Notes under the pieces: model-generated
Told to the model about the DNA's origin: nothing
The model's database searches: none
What the model saw: the letters and a program-made list of their open reading frames with translations, nothing else
Shown: positions 18,218 through 53,216 of the stretch, in pieces
Layout of the letters: every line of letters begins with the position of its first letter
Numbering within the stretch: position 1 is the stretch's first letter
Source of the DNA: an uncultured Desulfobacteraceae bacterium
Lineage (GTDB): Bacteria; Desulfobacterota; DSM-4660; Desulfatiglandales; Desulfatiglandaceae
Direction of reading: 5' to 3'
NCBI GenBank assembly: GCA_964627015.1
Contig: CAZVGY010000002.1
Location: forward strand, 36,554-100,553
DNA length: 64,000 nucleotides
Made by a program: the position numbers and the translations under genes

Positions 18218-18365
18218 GGCGGAGGGCCTGAAGTCCCCTCCCTGGCCCACGGCGATCTCCTGGGATGTATATCCTGAAGTTGCAGACTTTCGAGAGGACC
18301 GCAAGCTCTCCGCCGTACAAGGAGAAATAAAGCATTTTCAAATGTTACCGGCGGAAGTCTTCCGT
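18218..18365 (+). repeat. Short diverged relative of the Y element (see 20355..20769)
   Basis: The core gcagactttcgagaggaccgcaagctctccgc matches Y copy B gcggactttcagagggaaccgcaagctctgcgc at about 27 of 33 positions. The flanks align only weakly by eye (ggcgatctcctgggatg versus ggtggtatctcccattatg). Confidence 0.4.
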
Positions 18366-19866: not shown

Positions 19867-20224
19867 GAATTGTTCCTCCGTAACTGAAATTAAAATATTC
19901 GATTTCACAGCTTTGGCAATTATAAGACAGCAACTTGACCGGAACATGACGGCAGCATTACCAAATGGTAATGTTAGAAATGAGGGGACCAGGGGTTCAG
20001 GGGGTCATGGGAAGGAAGTGTATTGATAGGGCATGTTCTTGGTTCCAATTCTCATGGACTGGTTTTTTCATTTAACTACAAGAAGGGCAAAATTCGAAAT
20101 TCTAATATCGAAATTATAAACAAATTTAAATATCTAATGTTCAAAATATAAAAACAGAGGATAACTACAGTATGAGTAGCTATTGTTTTGATCACTTGAA
20201 TTTTATTTATTGAGTATTGTTTAG

Positions 20225-20329
20225 GATTTCAATTTTCTAAACAGGCCTTTCGGCTTTAAAAAGAGAGTTCTGAGCAGTCGCCAAGGGTTGTTTGCAGGGT
20301 TGGCTTCGAGCTTACGATTCCCTCTTCAG
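20225..20329 (+). repeat. X repeat, copy A (about 100 nt)
   Basis: ...caattttctaaacaggcctttcggctttaaaaagagagttctgagcagtcgccaagggttgtttgcagggttggcttcgagcttacgattccctcttcag. Related copies lie at 25148..25255 and 53111..53216, with a partial copy at 37705..37737. Confidence 0.8.
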
Positions 20330-20354
20330 ACCGCCTCTACTCCAGCAGAGGAGG

Positions 20355-20769
20355 CGGTCCTGGCTTCAAGGGTGCCGGTGCAGGCCGGTGGTATCTCCCA
20401 TTATGCCCATAAAAGGCACCCTTAGCTGCGGACCGCGGCCAAAGTTTTGAGTAGAATATTGAAAGATGCGGACATAGAGGGAACCGCAAACTCTCCGCTG
20501 ACGGCAATGGGGTATACTGAAGGAGCCTTGCCAGCAGTCACCTTTGAAAATACCTTATCCCTTCCGGGTATGGCGGGAAGCTCATATTGTGAGAGTCAAG
20601 GGGCCGATTTTATACAGACTGTCCAGGGCTCTCTGTTACAAGCCGACCAGGTACAGTGGTAAACAGGGTGGCATACTAAGAGGGTGAGGCGAGCGGCGGG
20701 ATAGCAGGGAGTGAGCCTTATTAAAGAAGCGACGGATTCAGCAAAAACGCCCTCCGCTCGTCTTTATGG
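20355..20769 (+). repeat. Y element copy A: about 415-nt non-coding repeat, candidate structured RNA
   Basis: Collinear with 24731..25147 at roughly 90 percent identity by eye. A 2-nt indel and non-periodic substitutions rule out conserved coding. It sits in the 1.1-kb htrA/hisS divergent intergenic region. Confidence 0.75.
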
Positions 20770-21130
20770 TGTTTGGTTTTAATTTTCCACATGGGGCTTT
20801 CCACTTTGAAAGATAGTTATAAACAGGTCCCATATTCAACAGACAGAGTTTGAGCATTCAATGTGACCGGTTGCATATTTTAAAGAGCTTATGCAGTATC
20901 AGGGAGCTTGTAGTATAGTATGCTTCAGGATTATAAGCTGCTGTAAAGAGATTAAAATGGAAGGAGCTTTGAATTTTTTGGAATAGACATTTACAGTTCG
21001 GCGTATTAAGTTGTACCGCTATCAACTGAAGCCCTGAATTTGACATGATTAATAATCATCTCAGAGCCGTTGACGTATGCTCGGGGCTTTTGATAAAAGA
21101 CCTTCTAGTAAAGAAGGGGGAGGCAGTAAT

Positions 21131-22390
21131 TTGGAATTTTCTACTGTAAAAGGTTTTAAAGATATATTACCTTCAGAAGCGGGTAAGTGGCAGAAGCTTG
21201 AAGCCTCAGCCCGTAAGGTGTTTCATTCCTTCGGATACCATGAGATCAGGACTCCCCTGTTAGAGAGAACCGAGCTTTTCAGTCGCGGAATTGGACAGGA
21301 CACTGATATTGTTTCAAAGGAGATGTATTCCCTCGAGGACAGCAAAGGCAGGGGGATGACAATGAGGCCTGAAGCTACTGCATCAGTGGTGAGGGCCTAT
21401 ATCCAACACCGACTTTATCAGGCAAGCCCTGTACAGAAGCTTTTCAGTATCGGCCCGATGTTTCGGCACGAGAGGCCTCAAAAAGGGAGATTCAGGCAGT
21501 TTCACCAGGTGAATGCAGAGATTTTAGGTGATCCAGGGCCCAGAAGTGATGCCGAAATTATTATAATGGCCGTGTTCCTGTTGGAGACGATAGGTGTCAA
21601 AAGTCTAAGCCTTAAACTTAACTCACTCGGATGTCCTACATGCAGACCCCGTTATAAAGAAGAACTCAGGGATTACCTTTTGGGAAAAGTTGCTTTATTT
21701 TGTTCGGATTGCAGGAGGAGATCAGAGGTTAATCCCTTGAGGGTATTTGATTGCAAGATGGAAGAGTGCAACAGAGTTGTGGAAGGCGCCCCGTCGACAC
21801 TGGAGTTTCTCTGTGATGAATGTCGCGATCACTTTGAATCCGTTCAGGGTTATCTGAAAAGATCGGATGTATCTTTTGTCCTGGATCACAGGCTTGTTAG
21901 AGGGCTTGATTATTATACCCGCACTGCTTTTGAGATACAGACGGAACTGCTGGGCTCTCAGAATGCTGTTGCAGGTGGGGGCAGATACGACGGCCTGATA
22001 AAACTTCTTGGAGGGCCGGACCATCCAGCAATTGGATTTGCTTTGGGAATTGAAAGGGTGATTTCCCTGGTGCAAGGGCAAGATGAGGAGGATTTTGAAA
22101 TCAGAGGGCCTGACCTTTTTATTGCTGCACTGGGGGACAATGCGGTTAAGGGCTGCTTTAAATGGGTCATAGAACTGAGGAAAGCTGGTTTCTGGGTTGA
22201 AATGGACTACGCCTCAAGAGGTCTGAAGGCCCAGATGAAAAAGGCTGACAGGCTCCGGGCAAGGAAGGTCCTGATTGTAGGCGACGATGAATTGGCCTCT
22301 GGAAGAGGTATCTTACGTGACCTGGTAACAGGAGACCAGGGTGAACTGGGCCTTGATGCCATCGCAACAATTATTGAGAAGGTATTATAG
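21131..22390 (+). CDS. hisS: Histidine--tRNA ligase
   Basis: Class II motifs (RPEATASVVRAY, FRHERPQKGRFRQFHQ, GGGRYDGL). Typical HisS proteins start near KGFKDILP, so I prefer TTG 21131 (GGGGGAGG 7 nt upstream). The track ATG 21077 remains possible. Confidence 0.93.
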   Translation: MEFSTVKGFKDILPSEAGKWQKLEASARKVFHSFGYHEIRTPLLERTELFSRGIGQDTDIVSKEMYSLEDSKGRGMTMRPEATASVVRAYIQHRLYQASPVQKLFSIGPMFRHERPQKGRFRQFHQVNAEILGDPGPRSDAEIIIMAVFLLETIGVKSLSLKLNSLGCPTCRPRYKEELRDYLLGKVALFCSDCRRRSEVNPLRVFDCKMEECNRVVEGAPSTLEFLCDECRDHFESVQGYLKRSDVSFVLDHRLVRGLDYYTRTAFEIQTELLGSQNAVAGGGRYDGLIKLLGGPDHPAIGFALGIERVISLVQGQDEEDFEIRGPDLFIAALGDNAVKGCFKWVIELRKAGFWVEMDYASRGLKAQMKKADRLRARKVLIVGDDELASGRGILRDLVTGDQGELGLDAIATIIEKVL

Positions 22391-22394
22391 ACTA

Positions 22395-24194
22395 ATGAAG
22401 AATAATGAAGAGTTTAGGATTGATCCTTTGGGTGAATGGAAGCGAACCTGTGATTGCGGCAGTCTGAGGGTGGAAAATGTAGGCGAGGAAGTTGTTTTGA
22501 TGGGCTGGGTGAATTCGAGGCGGGATCTGGGAAGCCTTATTTTTATTGACCTTCGTGACCGAGGTGGACTCACACAGGTAGTTTTTGATCCCCAGGTAGA
22601 CCGGTCGTGTCATGATAGGGCTCATATACTCAGGAATGAGTGGGTCTTGGCGGTCAAAGGAACGGTTTTCCCTCGTCTTGAAGGACAGGAAAATCCTGAT
22701 TTGCCTACTGGAGATATAGAGATACATGTAAGGGAGATAAAGATTCTTAACAGGACTGAGACCCCTCCCTTTCAGATCGACGGTCCTGTGGATGCCTCTG
22801 AGATACTTAGGCTCAAATACCGTTACCTTGAGCTGCGGAGGGCTCAGGTACAAAACCTTTTCCGTAAACGCCATGAGATTTCATCCTGTATAAGGGAGTA
22901 CCTGAACAGAGAGTCATTCATTGAGGTGGAGACGCCCTTTTTGACAAAGAGCACCCCTGAAGGTGCGAGAGATTATCTTGTTCCCAGCAGGGTAAACAGG
23001 GGTATGTTTTATGCTTTGCCTCAATCCCCCCAGCTTTTTAAGCAGTTGCTTATGGTAGCTGGATTTGACCGTTATTATCAGATTGTTAAGTGCTTCAGGG
23101 ATGAAGACCTGAGAGCGGATCGTCAGCCCGAATTCACCCAGGTGGATCTTGAGATGTCCTTCATTGATGAAGAGGGGGTTATGGGGGTTTTTGAAGGCAT
23201 GATGAAGGAGATCTTTGACCGAGTCTTGAGTCGTTCTATTGAAACTCCTATCCCGCGATTGGAATACAGCCAGGCTATGGATCGTTTTGGGACCGATAGA
23301 CCAGACACGCGATTCGGTATGGAGTTGAGAGACATAACCGACATCGCTGGCAGATCGGATTTCAGGGTGTTCAGGGGAGTAATCCAAAATGGTGGTGTAG
23401 TCAAGGCGATTATGGTCAGAAGAGGGGCGGATTATTTTTCCAGGAAAGGCATAGATGAACTTTCACAAGTGGCTAATGAAAATGGTGCCAAAGGACTTGT
23501 CTGGATAAAGGTTGTCGATAACGGGTGGCAATCCTCTATTGATAAATTTTTCAAAGAGCAGGACAAGGCTGCTATCAACAAGAGGCTGGAAGCTGAACCA
23601 GGTGACTTGGTGTTAATTGTGGCTGATAATACAGAAATTACCAATGAAGCTCTGGGGCGCCTCAGAATCGACTTGGCTGGACGCCTGGGGCTGATCGATA
23701 AGGATGAATTCGCCCTCGTATGGGTCATAAAGTTTCCACTCTTTGAATATAATGAAACTGAAAAAAGGCTGGAAGCGGTGCATCATCCTTTTACTGCACC
23801 GGTTCAAGATGACCTCCACCTTTTTGGCGACAATCCGGGAAGGGTAAGGGCTAGGGCCTATGATTTGGTTCTGAATGGTGCTGAAATAGGGGGAGGAAGT
23901 GTGAGGATACACAACCTTGCCCTTCAGGAGAGGATGTTCGACATTCTGGGGATAGCACCTTCTGAGGCCCAACGTAAGTTTGGGTTTCTCCTCGAGGCCT
24001 TGAAATACGGGGCTCCTCCCCATGCCGGGATGGCAATCGGTTTAGACCGTCTGGTTGCTATTATGACAGGTGTGGGATCAATAAGGGAGGTCATTGCATT
24101 CCCAAAGACAACCAGCGCAACCTGCCCGCTTACCGACGCACCCTCCACGATTGATGAAGAACAACTAAAAGAACTCGGCCTTAAAAATTTATGA
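22395..24194 (+). CDS. aspS: Aspartate--tRNA ligase
   Basis: OB-fold N-terminus (VVLMGWVNSRRDLGSLIFIDLRDRGG), motif 2 FRDEDLRADRQPEFTQVD, motif 3 GLDRLVAIM. ATG 22395 lies just after the hisS stop. The track start at 22341 overlaps hisS. Confidence 0.95.
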   Translation: MKNNEEFRIDPLGEWKRTCDCGSLRVENVGEEVVLMGWVNSRRDLGSLIFIDLRDRGGLTQVVFDPQVDRSCHDRAHILRNEWVLAVKGTVFPRLEGQENPDLPTGDIEIHVREIKILNRTETPPFQIDGPVDASEILRLKYRYLELRRAQVQNLFRKRHEISSCIREYLNRESFIEVETPFLTKSTPEGARDYLVPSRVNRGMFYALPQSPQLFKQLLMVAGFDRYYQIVKCFRDEDLRADRQPEFTQVDLEMSFIDEEGVMGVFEGMMKEIFDRVLSRSIETPIPRLEYSQAMDRFGTDRPDTRFGMELRDITDIAGRSDFRVFRGVIQNGGVVKAIMVRRGADYFSRKGIDELSQVANENGAKGLVWIKVVDNGWQSSIDKFFKEQDKAAINKRLEAEPGDLVLIVADNTEITNEALGRLRIDLAGRLGLIDKDEFALVWVIKFPLFEYNETEKRLEAVHHPFTAPVQDDLHLFGDNPGRVRARAYDLVLNGAEIGGGSVRIHNLALQERMFDILGIAPSEAQRKFGFLLEALKYGAPPHAGMAIGLDRLVAIMTGVGSIREVIAFPKTTSATCPLTDAPSTIDEEQLKELGLKNL

Positions 24195-24334: not shown

Positions 24335-24619
24335 ATGGTTTGTTCAACTGTTAAGGAAGGGTATGATTGTGCTTTTATGAGCAAGCAGGGCTGTCAGTTT
24401 AATGGTGGTACCTGTCACGTGATTGTAGAACAGTGCGAAGGATGCAGCAAGGCGCAGGAATTCCCCTCAGGCAAGTATTGCCTCATTTTCCCCGATCCCT
24501 CTGCCAAATGGAGATTAGGCAACTGCAGTATGGCCACACATTTGAAGGCATTGGAAGGAAAAGAAAAAACAAACGGGAAATTGAACCCCCTGAAGGCCTC
24601 CAAGCGAGGCGGTCGTTAA
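24335..24619 (+). CDS. PxxKW-family cysteine-rich small protein
   Basis: 94 aa with eight Cys (C..C......C......C....C..C) and the motif DPSAKW (P-x-x-K-W). Family name is from memory of NCBI naming. Confidence 0.6.
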   Translation: MVCSTVKEGYDCAFMSKQGCQFNGGTCHVIVEQCEGCSKAQEFPSGKYCLIFPDPSAKWRLGNCSMATHLKALEGKEKTNGKLNPLKASKRGGR

Positions 24620-24730
24620 TTATACCTATTGGTTCCCTTTTAGGTCCCGCTTTAGTTTTACATTTTTTGAGGAGACGATAGACTTCGGCCTTGTGGTGTC
24701 CTTCAAAGGAAGCCTACTCTAGTAAAGAGA

Positions 24731-25147
24731 CGGTCCTGGCTTCAAGTGTGCCCGCGCAGTCCTGTGGTATCTCCCATTATGCCCATAAAAGGCACACTTA
24801 GCTGCGGACTGCGGCCAACGTTTTGCCTGGAATATTGAAAGATGCGGACTTTCAGAGGGAACCGCAAGCTCTGCGCTGATGGCACCGGGGTATGCTGAAG
24901 GAGCCTTGCCACCAGTCACCTTTGAAGACACCTTATCCCTTCCGGGTATGGCGGGAAGCTCATATTGTGAGAGTCAAGGCGCCGATTTTATATAGACTTT
25001 TCGGGGCTCTCTGTTACAAGCCGACCAGGTACGGTGGTAAATAGGCCTGCATGCTAAAAATGTGAGGCGAGCGGCGGGATAGCAGGGAGTGAGCCTTAGT
25101 AAAGAAGCGACGGATTTAGCAAAAACGCCCTCCGCTCGCCTTTATGG
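24731..25147 (+). repeat. Y element copy B
   Basis: Same order and orientation as copy A, and ends in the same long stem (gaggcgagcggcggg ... ccctccgctcgcc). Confidence 0.75.
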
Positions 25148-25255
25148 CACCGGGTTTAATTTTGCAAATAGGACTTTCGGCTTTAAAAAGAGAGCCCTGA
25201 GCAGTCGTTAAGGTCTGTTTTGAGTATTAGCTTCGAGCCTGCAGTCCCCTCAAAG
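25148..25255 (+). repeat. X repeat, copy B (directly 3' of Y copy B)
   Basis: caccgggtttaattttgcaaataggactttcggctttaaaaagagagccctgagcagtcgttaaggtctgttttgagtattagcttcgagcctgcagtcccctcaaagg. Confidence 0.8.
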
Positions 25256-25316
25256 GGGAAATTTCAGTACAGCAAGAGATAGACGCTAGATACAGCGTGC
25301 CGAATAGAGAACGATC

Positions 25317-52766: not shown

Positions 52767-53078
52767 CCGAAATTGTTTGTCTGTTTGAAGAATAGGGATA
52801 TACTTTTACCTTTATGCATGTCAAGTGTAAAGTTGTAGTTAGGTTTGCTAGTTAAGGAGATGGTCTTCAAAAATTCCTGGGGGTATGTCCAAAATAATAG
52901 GGTCCGATATAGCCAGGTGGGCGGCTTTTGCTTATTTAAGGAAGTCTCTCTTCCATAAAAGAAACAGATCCCTTCTTTTTTATTAGTCGATTTGCCTGAA
53001 CCCCTCTTTTTTTTAAGGCGGTTTCTAAGAAGGCGCCTGGATAGAACCCTTACCTGGAATTTAAAAGTGTTTATTCAC

Positions 53079-53216
53079 CTCAGCAAAAGGGCCTTCTGTT
53101 CGCCTTGGTGGCACCGGGTTTTAATTTCCCATATAGGACTTTCGGCTTTAAAAAGAGAGTTATGAACAGTCGTCAAGGTTTGTTTTGAGGATTAGCTCCT
53201 AGCTTCCAGTCCCCTC
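53079..53216 (+). repeat. Y 3'-end remnant plus X repeat copy C
   Basis: cctcagcaaaagggccttctgttcgccttggtggcaccgggttttaatttcccatataggactttcggctttaaaaagagagttatgaacagtcgtcaaggtttgttttgaggattagctcctagcttccagtcccctc aligns with the last ~35 nt of Y copy B (its 3' arm) plus X copy B. Confidence 0.7.

Follow-up and report, generated by a model that had tools for sequence, protein, structure and literature searches.

Features of the window

The DNA analyzed here (the window, a stretch of 64 kb) carries hisS, aspS and a DUF6811 gene between two copies, A and B, of a sequence named Y. Each Y copy is made up of modules called m5, mid and m3, an element called X accompanies them, and parts of these modules combine into two larger units, ALPHA and BETA, that are predicted to fold. 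The features are listed below in the order of their coordinates.

18244..18316, plus strand: diverged m5 fragment (profile positions 78-150), between htpX and htrA (C2:54797-54869)
20224..20350, plus strand: X element, copy A; the BETA closing helix takes its left arm from the 3' part of this X, 20308-20324 (GAGCTTACGATTCCCTC)
20352..20523, plus strand: m5 of Y copy A, which makes up the body of BETA; 9-bp helix (20368-20376 / 20415-20423) inside a longer hairpin
20477-20493, plus strand: right arm of the BETA closing helix, copy A, within m5
20523..20610, plus strand: mid module of Y copy A, a variable linker missing from many copies
20606..20785, plus strand: m3 of Y copy A, forming the 5' two-thirds of ALPHA; terminal stem 20686-20700 / 20750-20762 with the wobble G20689:T20761
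21077-22390, plus strand: hisS, between the Y copies, outside the repeat
22341-24194, plus strand: aspS, between the Y copies, outside the repeat
24335-24619, plus strand: DUF6811 gene, between the Y copies, outside the repeat
24728..24901, plus strand: m5 module of Y copy B; 9-bp helix 24744-24752 / 24791-24799, with U:A at 24747/24796
24730-24740 / 24801-24812, plus strand: outer stem in m5 of copy B
24900..24988, plus strand: mid module of Y copy B
24995..25206, plus strand: complete ALPHA, copy B; closing arms 24995-25030 / 25173-25206
25064-25078 / 25128-25140, plus strand: ALPHA terminal stem, copy B
25153..25277, plus strand: X element, copy B, overlapping the ALPHA 3' arm
53078..53216, plus strand: third, partial unit, made of the last 50 nt of m3 and an X

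No tRNA or tmRNA gene was found in the 64-kb window. The host is an uncultured bacterium of the Thermodesulfobacteriota, close to genomes of the Desulfatiglandaceae type, and its AspRS showed 70% identity to the closest named record. Decay has removed the 3' arm of the closing helix of ALPHA from copy A, where homology is gone after about position 20815; in copy B there is no X upstream of m5, and hence the left arm of BETA is absent.

A preliminary description of the two Y copies had proposed two helices on the basis of a double base change and a wobble pair. We verified the bases of the 9-bp helix in the sequence: aagggtgcc (20368-20376) faces ggcaccctt (20415-20423) in copy A, and aagtgtgcc faces ggcacactt in copy B, where position 24747 reads t and position 24796 reads a. 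The terminal 3' stem was also as described, being perfect in copy B (ccgctcgcc) and carrying a single C-to-T change in copy A (ccgctcgTc), which places T 20761 opposite G 20689.

Repeat modules in the host genome

The host genome (4.18 Mb in 269 contigs) was searched with Y as the query, and 60 BLAST matches were obtained on many contigs. Profile searches recovered 24 full m5, 33 m3, 14 mid and 33 X modules, which fall into about 40 clusters (loci). Module length is 90-230 nt and orientation is uniform; on the sense strand the modules always follow one another in the cycle X - m5 - (mid) - m3, which then returns to X and m5. The smallest clusters consist of a lone X, m3+X or X+m5, others are units of about 550 nt, and the largest are arrays of four units; the arrays begin and stop at varying points of the X - m5 - (mid) - m3 cycle, and partial and permuted units are common. 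Contigs retrieved by the exact proteins of neighboring genes were short and ended inside repeats.

The beginning of m3 recurs, reverse-complemented, within X. ALPHA, about 215 nt long, consists of (mid), m3 and the 5' part of X; in an m3+X alignment of 45 copies, 14 of them from a sister population, it is closed by a long-range helix of 27-31 bp (GACUGUUCAGGGCUCUCUGUUACAAGCCG / CGGCUUUAAAAAGAGAGUCCUGAGCAGUC) that encloses the terminal stem, and this central stem is nearly invariant (GGCGAGCGG / CCGCUCGCC in this genome). BETA, about 190 nt long, consists of the 3' part of X and m5 and contains a long hairpin. Its closing helix is formed by the X 3' part GAGCCUGCGGUCCCCUC and by GAGGGAACCGCAAGCUC near the end of m5, and the 9-bp helix lies inside it.

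Y had been treated as a discrete unit or gene. The closing helices of ALPHA and BETA show it instead to be a junction, at which the 3' portion of BETA meets the first (5') two-thirds of ALPHA. The transcript end that had been placed near ctttatgg is likewise contradicted, because conserved ALPHA structure continues past this point, the 3' arm of the closing helix sitting 33-66 nt beyond it at 25173-25206. No reading frame was open across copies of the modules, whose variability was without 3-base periodicity. Searches of Rfam 15 gave no match at the gathering score and only chance-level matches at E up to 10, and a sequence scan found no consensus promoter or terminator at the element ends.

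Conservation of the helices within the lineage

The m5 hairpin was examined in an alignment of 31 distinct copies (A2), with slid partners and 500 shuffles as controls. The results showed that 94.0% of the cells were paired, compared with 32-48% when the partners were slid. Four pairs had changed on both sides (shuffled mean 1.0), and there were 16 further pair types (12.7 in the shuffles); in each case 1 of the 500 shuffles was as high. The G:C to U:A double change between the two Y copies, from which RNA structure had been argued, is one of these four compensated pairs (pair 20-69), and another m5 copy carries an additional G:C to A:U change in the 9-bp helix.

For ALPHA, 97.0% of the cells were paired in an alignment of 44 copies (A1), versus 44-54% with slid partners. 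Covariation beyond the shuffles was absent in these 44 copies from this lineage, the shuffles equaling the observed pairing, and a double change was seen in one cell only. Variation of ALPHA within the lineage is one-sided, with a purine opposite a fixed U or a pyrimidine opposite a fixed G. Within the terminal stem, the 9-bp core was Watson-Crick throughout 44-45 copies except for four single G:U pairs, one of which is the wobble of copy A, and it held no A:C or other mismatch.

Both helices hold across the 31-45 further copies, and both are real, conserved and selected structures. The claim of RNA structure stands as far as the conservation and compensation of the helices go; compensation is also expected of the arms of a transposon-derived palindrome, and folding as RNA is plausible.

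Strand signature and folding

Across all consensus helices of ALPHA in this genome, G:U occupied 377 cells versus 50 for A:C. In the long closing helix the counts were 100 and 3, and among the minority states of this helix G:U appeared at 13 positions and A:C at 1. Pairs with a G:U consensus confound a per-column count of transition directions, so unpaired columns alone were used as the control. In the same ALPHA copies these showed just a 1.4:1 excess of G:U-creating transitions, so that mutation bias cannot explain the excess of G:U in ALPHA. The helices of BETA together had 110 G:U and 47 A:C cells, about half of the G:U coming from two invariant pairs, and in its outer helix A:C exceeded G:U. 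In elements outside this genome whose orientation was fixed by at least 15 bits, the arms held 45 G:U versus 13 A:C (20 elements versus 4), though the strand choice of the covariance model could itself favor G:U; a simple comparison of arms in one relative gave 15 versus 13.

In all 45 copies, the fold predicted for ALPHA was more stable on the sense than on the antisense strand. As raw sense and antisense energies are partly compositional (G 32% vs. C 21%), z-scores were added, and the composition-corrected values were -5.6 for the sense and -4.7 for the antisense strand. The corresponding values for BETA were -5.0 antisense and -2.8 sense; the minus strand of BETA (for example 20308-20493) is predicted to fold better in 26 of 28 copies, which is opposite to ALPHA even though the two are always co-oriented.

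As read from the sequences, the wobble asymmetry favors the plus strand for ALPHA, and BETA is without such a bias. The tolerance of ALPHA for G:U, with A:C nearly absent, would fit folding of the plus single strand. Both helices had been taken to speak for a plus-strand transcript. This part of the proposal survives for the terminal stem, since ALPHA accepts G:U and almost never A:C, but the 9-bp helix is no argument for a strand because it shows seven A:C versus two G:U on the plus strand, and BETA, its host module, folds better on the minus strand.

ALPHA in relatives across the order

BLAST searches of 40 related genomes gave no matches, and a covariance model was therefore required to find relatives; a first pattern scan of the contigs of other genomes had returned chance matches only, in high-GC genomes. 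The ALPHA covariance model (R1) gave full-length matches in a second genus of the family; over the order as a whole it matched 21 of 209 genomes, representing 16 of 89 genera. Copy number was 10 to about 190 per genome in 20 other genomes, and among related genera it ranged from 0 to about 190. A covariance model of the m5 hairpin (R2) matched this genome only, and BETA is lineage-specific.

Several observations were made on single genomes. In G014, from the other genus of the family (loci L148, L157 and L159, for example), the arm motif AGGRCATGRGRCTCTCTTTT was counted 372 times versus 0 for a control pattern. Many of these copies lie within 200 nt of contig ends, and the arm repeat appears to be a main cause of the fragmentation of this assembly. 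At another locus of the same genome (L172, G014:C123:6500-11025), an ORF at 835-2067 on the minus strand encodes a 410-aa protein with a weak match to the class II aminoacyl-tRNA synthetase core; it adjoins glutamine synthetase, between repeat arms. Two near-complete genomes hold about 25 and 11 elements with the arm spacing fixed at 202 nt. In G151 and G152 (for example G151:C10:530115/530354, C14:32412/32613), both arms of each element share the same variant (GGAGG, GGGAG, CCCTCC and others), showing that the arms co-vary copy by copy.

Order-wide covariation was measured in an alignment of 40 elements from outside this genome (A4) against 500 shuffles. The fraction of paired cells was 92.8% (71.6% shuffled), 34 of 39 pairs had double changes (22.6 shuffled), and the covariation score was 0.540 (0.165 shuffled, about 0.1 for slid controls). 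None of the 500 shuffles matched the observed pairing, double changes or covariation score. The terminal stem itself, GGCGGGCGG / CCGCCCGCC in relatives and GGCGAGCGG / CCGCUCGCC here, differs by a compensated pair. Covariation of the kind looked for in structured non-coding RNAs is thus present, but the same result is expected of a palindromic DNA element. The unpaired ALPHA blocks and the central stem are very strongly conserved, and this would also fit a functional RNA.

Transposon hallmarks and the search for a partner

In relatives, complementarity runs outward to terminal inverted repeats, and ALPHA is the core of elements of 290-300 bp. The outer inverted repeats are GTAAC.../...GTTAC in several genera, where they are flanked by 8-bp duplications, or CAGTAATG.../...CATTACTG in another genus, with 9-bp duplications. 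Target-site duplications agreed in 9 of 9 bases twice and in 8 of 8 twice, and three more cases were near-perfect. An empty site was also found: an element present in G151 and G153 is missing at the same site in their congener G152. To judge from their sequences, the elements of the relatives bear the hallmarks of miniature transposons that would be moved by a DDE-type enzyme, a mechanism to which the 8-9 bp target duplications point.

The genome studied here shows the internal ALPHA inverted repeat of 27-31 bp and no outer repeats. Target duplications and empty sites were seen in relatives only, none being demonstrable for the mosaic units of the host genome.

Searches for a partner element were negative. 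ALPHA arms were found nowhere else in the host genome when a parent element was sought, and two near-complete relatives contained no widely spaced arm pairs. Between arm copies in one relative there were ordinary housekeeping genes and no transposase partner. Y1 transposase (Y1_Tnp) genes were present in both genomes tested, on contigs without repeats and never adjacent to them, and an IS66 transposase was found in 0 of 7 carrier genomes, in searches whose controls gave matches. No autonomous element with the same ends was found.

Recombination and gene context

A sister metagenome population, whose flanks are 92-96% identical, carries repeats at the same loci with differing module content. 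The two Y copies as first compared in the window are 90% identical. In the comparison with the sister, the A and B copies flanking hisS-aspS are 87-89% identical to each other here, and the corresponding values in the sister are 96% and 88%, versus 79-89% between positional orthologues of the A and B copies in this genome and the sister, although the flanking genes are about 95% identical. On these identities, the A/B pair (20352-20785 and 24728-25163; L060 and L063) follows a pattern of concerted evolution between flanking direct repeats, and the sequences suggest gene conversion between them.

At L064, one sister contig joins the left flank of the X at 53078-53216 to the right flank of an X 12.5 kb away. 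The segment between these two direct X repeats is thus absent or relocated in the sister, since the contig joins their outer flanks. The region concerned extends from position 53041 of the window to beyond 64000 (genome C2:89594-102122).

By crude ORF-based gene calls, 10 clusters of the host genome in co-directional gene contexts are in sense and 2 in antisense orientation, while 9 clusters lie between convergent and 3 between divergent genes. A co-oriented gene lies upstream in 19 of 24 clusters. Orientation to genes was unbiased in other genomes (11 sense, 18 antisense), and no conserved gene neighborhood of ALPHA was found there.

Interpretation of the repeats

We consider it probable that Y is not a gene and belongs to a family of non-coding, intergenic repeats of mosaic build, which derives in part from an order-wide miniature transposon and whose hairpins would be kept for the folding of one strand. 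ALPHA and BETA would be the folding units, the core of ALPHA being shared with the miniature transposons of relatives and BETA being particular to the lineage. Intrastrand pairing is kept by compensatory and wobble changes, the mismatches tolerated in ALPHA being G:U on the plus strand. It may be a single-stranded form of the ALPHA plus strand that matters, and this strand could be RNA, made by co-transcription with an upstream gene, or single-stranded DNA formed during mobilization or replication. The copies recombine: the pair flanking hisS-aspS shows concerted evolution, and sister populations differ in repeat content. Any effect on neighboring genes, such as stabilization, processing or termination of transcripts, would be a by-product. 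Some results count against the mosaic-repeat reading: ALPHA shows no covariation beyond shuffles and one-sided variation within the genome, the simple arm count in a relative was 15 G:U to 13 A:C, orientation to genes is unbiased elsewhere, target duplications and empty sites come from relatives, and no autonomous partner was found.

Much of the same evidence bears on the idea that ALPHA, and perhaps the whole X-Y, is a functional plus-strand structured RNA with a miniature transposon as its source, by exaptation, or as its means of spread; such an RNA could be a 3'-UTR element acting in cis to stabilize, process or terminate a transcript, or a family of small-RNA genes. The plus-strand wobble tolerance of ALPHA, the greater stability of the sense strand in 45 of 45 copies with its lower z-score, the overwhelming order-wide covariation, the very strong conservation of the central stem and unpaired blocks, and the sense placement downstream of co-oriented genes in this genome (10 vs. 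2; 19 of 24 clusters) all speak for it. On the other hand, there is no Rfam match, the element ends have no promoter-like or terminator-like site, and in other genomes the gene neighborhood is not conserved and orientation is random. Related genera carry anywhere from 0 to about 190 copies, many units are partial or permuted, BETA is predicted to fold better on the other strand than ALPHA, and the target duplications and the empty site show transposition as DNA. We therefore regard a functional RNA as rather unlikely. We would give similarly little weight to the proposal that ALPHA is a class of structured RNA of about 215 nt in Thermodesulfobacteriota, or else an element that moves by way of a folded single-stranded intermediate, which some enzyme would make. 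If this were true, the copy number would follow from spread in the form of a miniature transposon, and a function at the level of RNA or of the single strand would underlie the plus-strand wobble, the invariant central stem and the conserved loops.

Two other explanations are very improbable. A regulatory leader of hisS-aspS, of the T-box or riboswitch kind, would agree with the position of Y copy A, which shares the strand of hisS and precedes it by about 300 nt, but neither a T-box nor any other Rfam model matched even at E up to 10, the same modules occur at about 40 loci by unrelated genes, some of them downstream of genes, and the second Y copy sits after the operon; the distribution of the modules refutes a leader in practice. 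Chance complementarity, or the inherited likeness of recent duplicates under no structural constraint, might have been enough when two copies only were in view, and shuffles of ALPHA in this genome do reach the observed pairing. Yet 97% and 94% of the cells are paired versus 32-54% after sliding, compensated pairs exceed the shuffles for m5 and do so massively for ALPHA across the order, and A:C pairs are nearly absent. Chance pairing is refuted by the shuffle tests of m5 (31 copies) and of order-wide ALPHA (40 elements) and is hardly credible.

Comparison with known repeat systems

Correia/NEMIS elements of Neisseria, ERIC/RU-1 of enterobacteria and RUP of pneumococcus have been reviewed (PMC3184786, PMC2229807, PMC10969869). 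Like them, the family described here is small, non-coding, multi-copy and intergenic and forms a long imperfect palindrome, and the elements of relatives resemble Correia, ERIC and RUP further in their terminal inverted repeats, their 8-9 bp duplications and their presence or absence between congeners. It differs from these three in a second, internal inverted repeat of 30 bp, in a nearly invariant GC-rich central stem and in the negative search for an autonomous partner; the core in this genome is moreover fused to other modules, forms arrays and has no demonstrable target duplication. Of the features by which MITEs are recognized, small dispersed non-coding copies, terminal inverted repeats (in relatives) and presence/absence were found, and an autonomous partner was not.

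BIMEs are clusters of REP units in enterobacteria, and BOX elements of Streptococcus pneumoniae are built from boxA-boxB-boxC modules (PMC3184786). The combination of modules in variable number and order, the hairpin units, the link to recombination, the suspected roles at the RNA level and the bias to sites downstream of genes and between convergent genes are all shared with BIME and BOX. The modules here are far longer, however (about 90-230 nt vs. 20-60), their order is cyclic and uniformly oriented and not alternating, and there is no adjacent REP-associated transposase.

A hairpin kept by compensatory change is also a property of REPINs, and the single-strand signature would fit a single-stranded DNA intermediate. 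REPINs are mobilized by RAYT tyrosine (Y1) transposases, and REP, BIME and REPIN units are short palindromes (20-40 nt) in alternating orientation. Here the Y1 transposase genes are not flanked by repeats, and the 8-9 bp duplications of relatives suggest the DDE type. Membership in the REP/BIME/REPIN group was rejected on RAYT flanking and on the 20-40 nt alternating units.

IS66 ends are inverted repeats starting with GTAAGCG and make 8-bp duplications (PMC11946415). The outer repeats in several genera are similar in that they start with GTAAC and are flanked by 8-bp duplications, and dissimilar in that another genus has CAGTAATG ends with 9-bp duplications. Derivation from IS66 was rejected with a transposase in 0 of 7 carrier genomes. 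A T-box or other leader of aminoacyl-tRNA synthetase genes was rejected as well, there being no model match and no specificity of position for synthetase genes.

On the mosaic-repeat reading, what had looked like an oddity of two copies becomes a defined repeat system, a family of palindromic miniature transposons that spans the order and has no entry in Rfam. One lineage would have rebuilt this family into a mosaic of hairpin modules, which recombine, show concerted evolution where they flank housekeeping genes, and interrupt short-read assemblies. The wobble, being specific to one strand, is a concrete and testable hint that a single-stranded form of the element matters, and the ALPHA covariance model lets annotators mask these elements in place of calling them new RNA genes.
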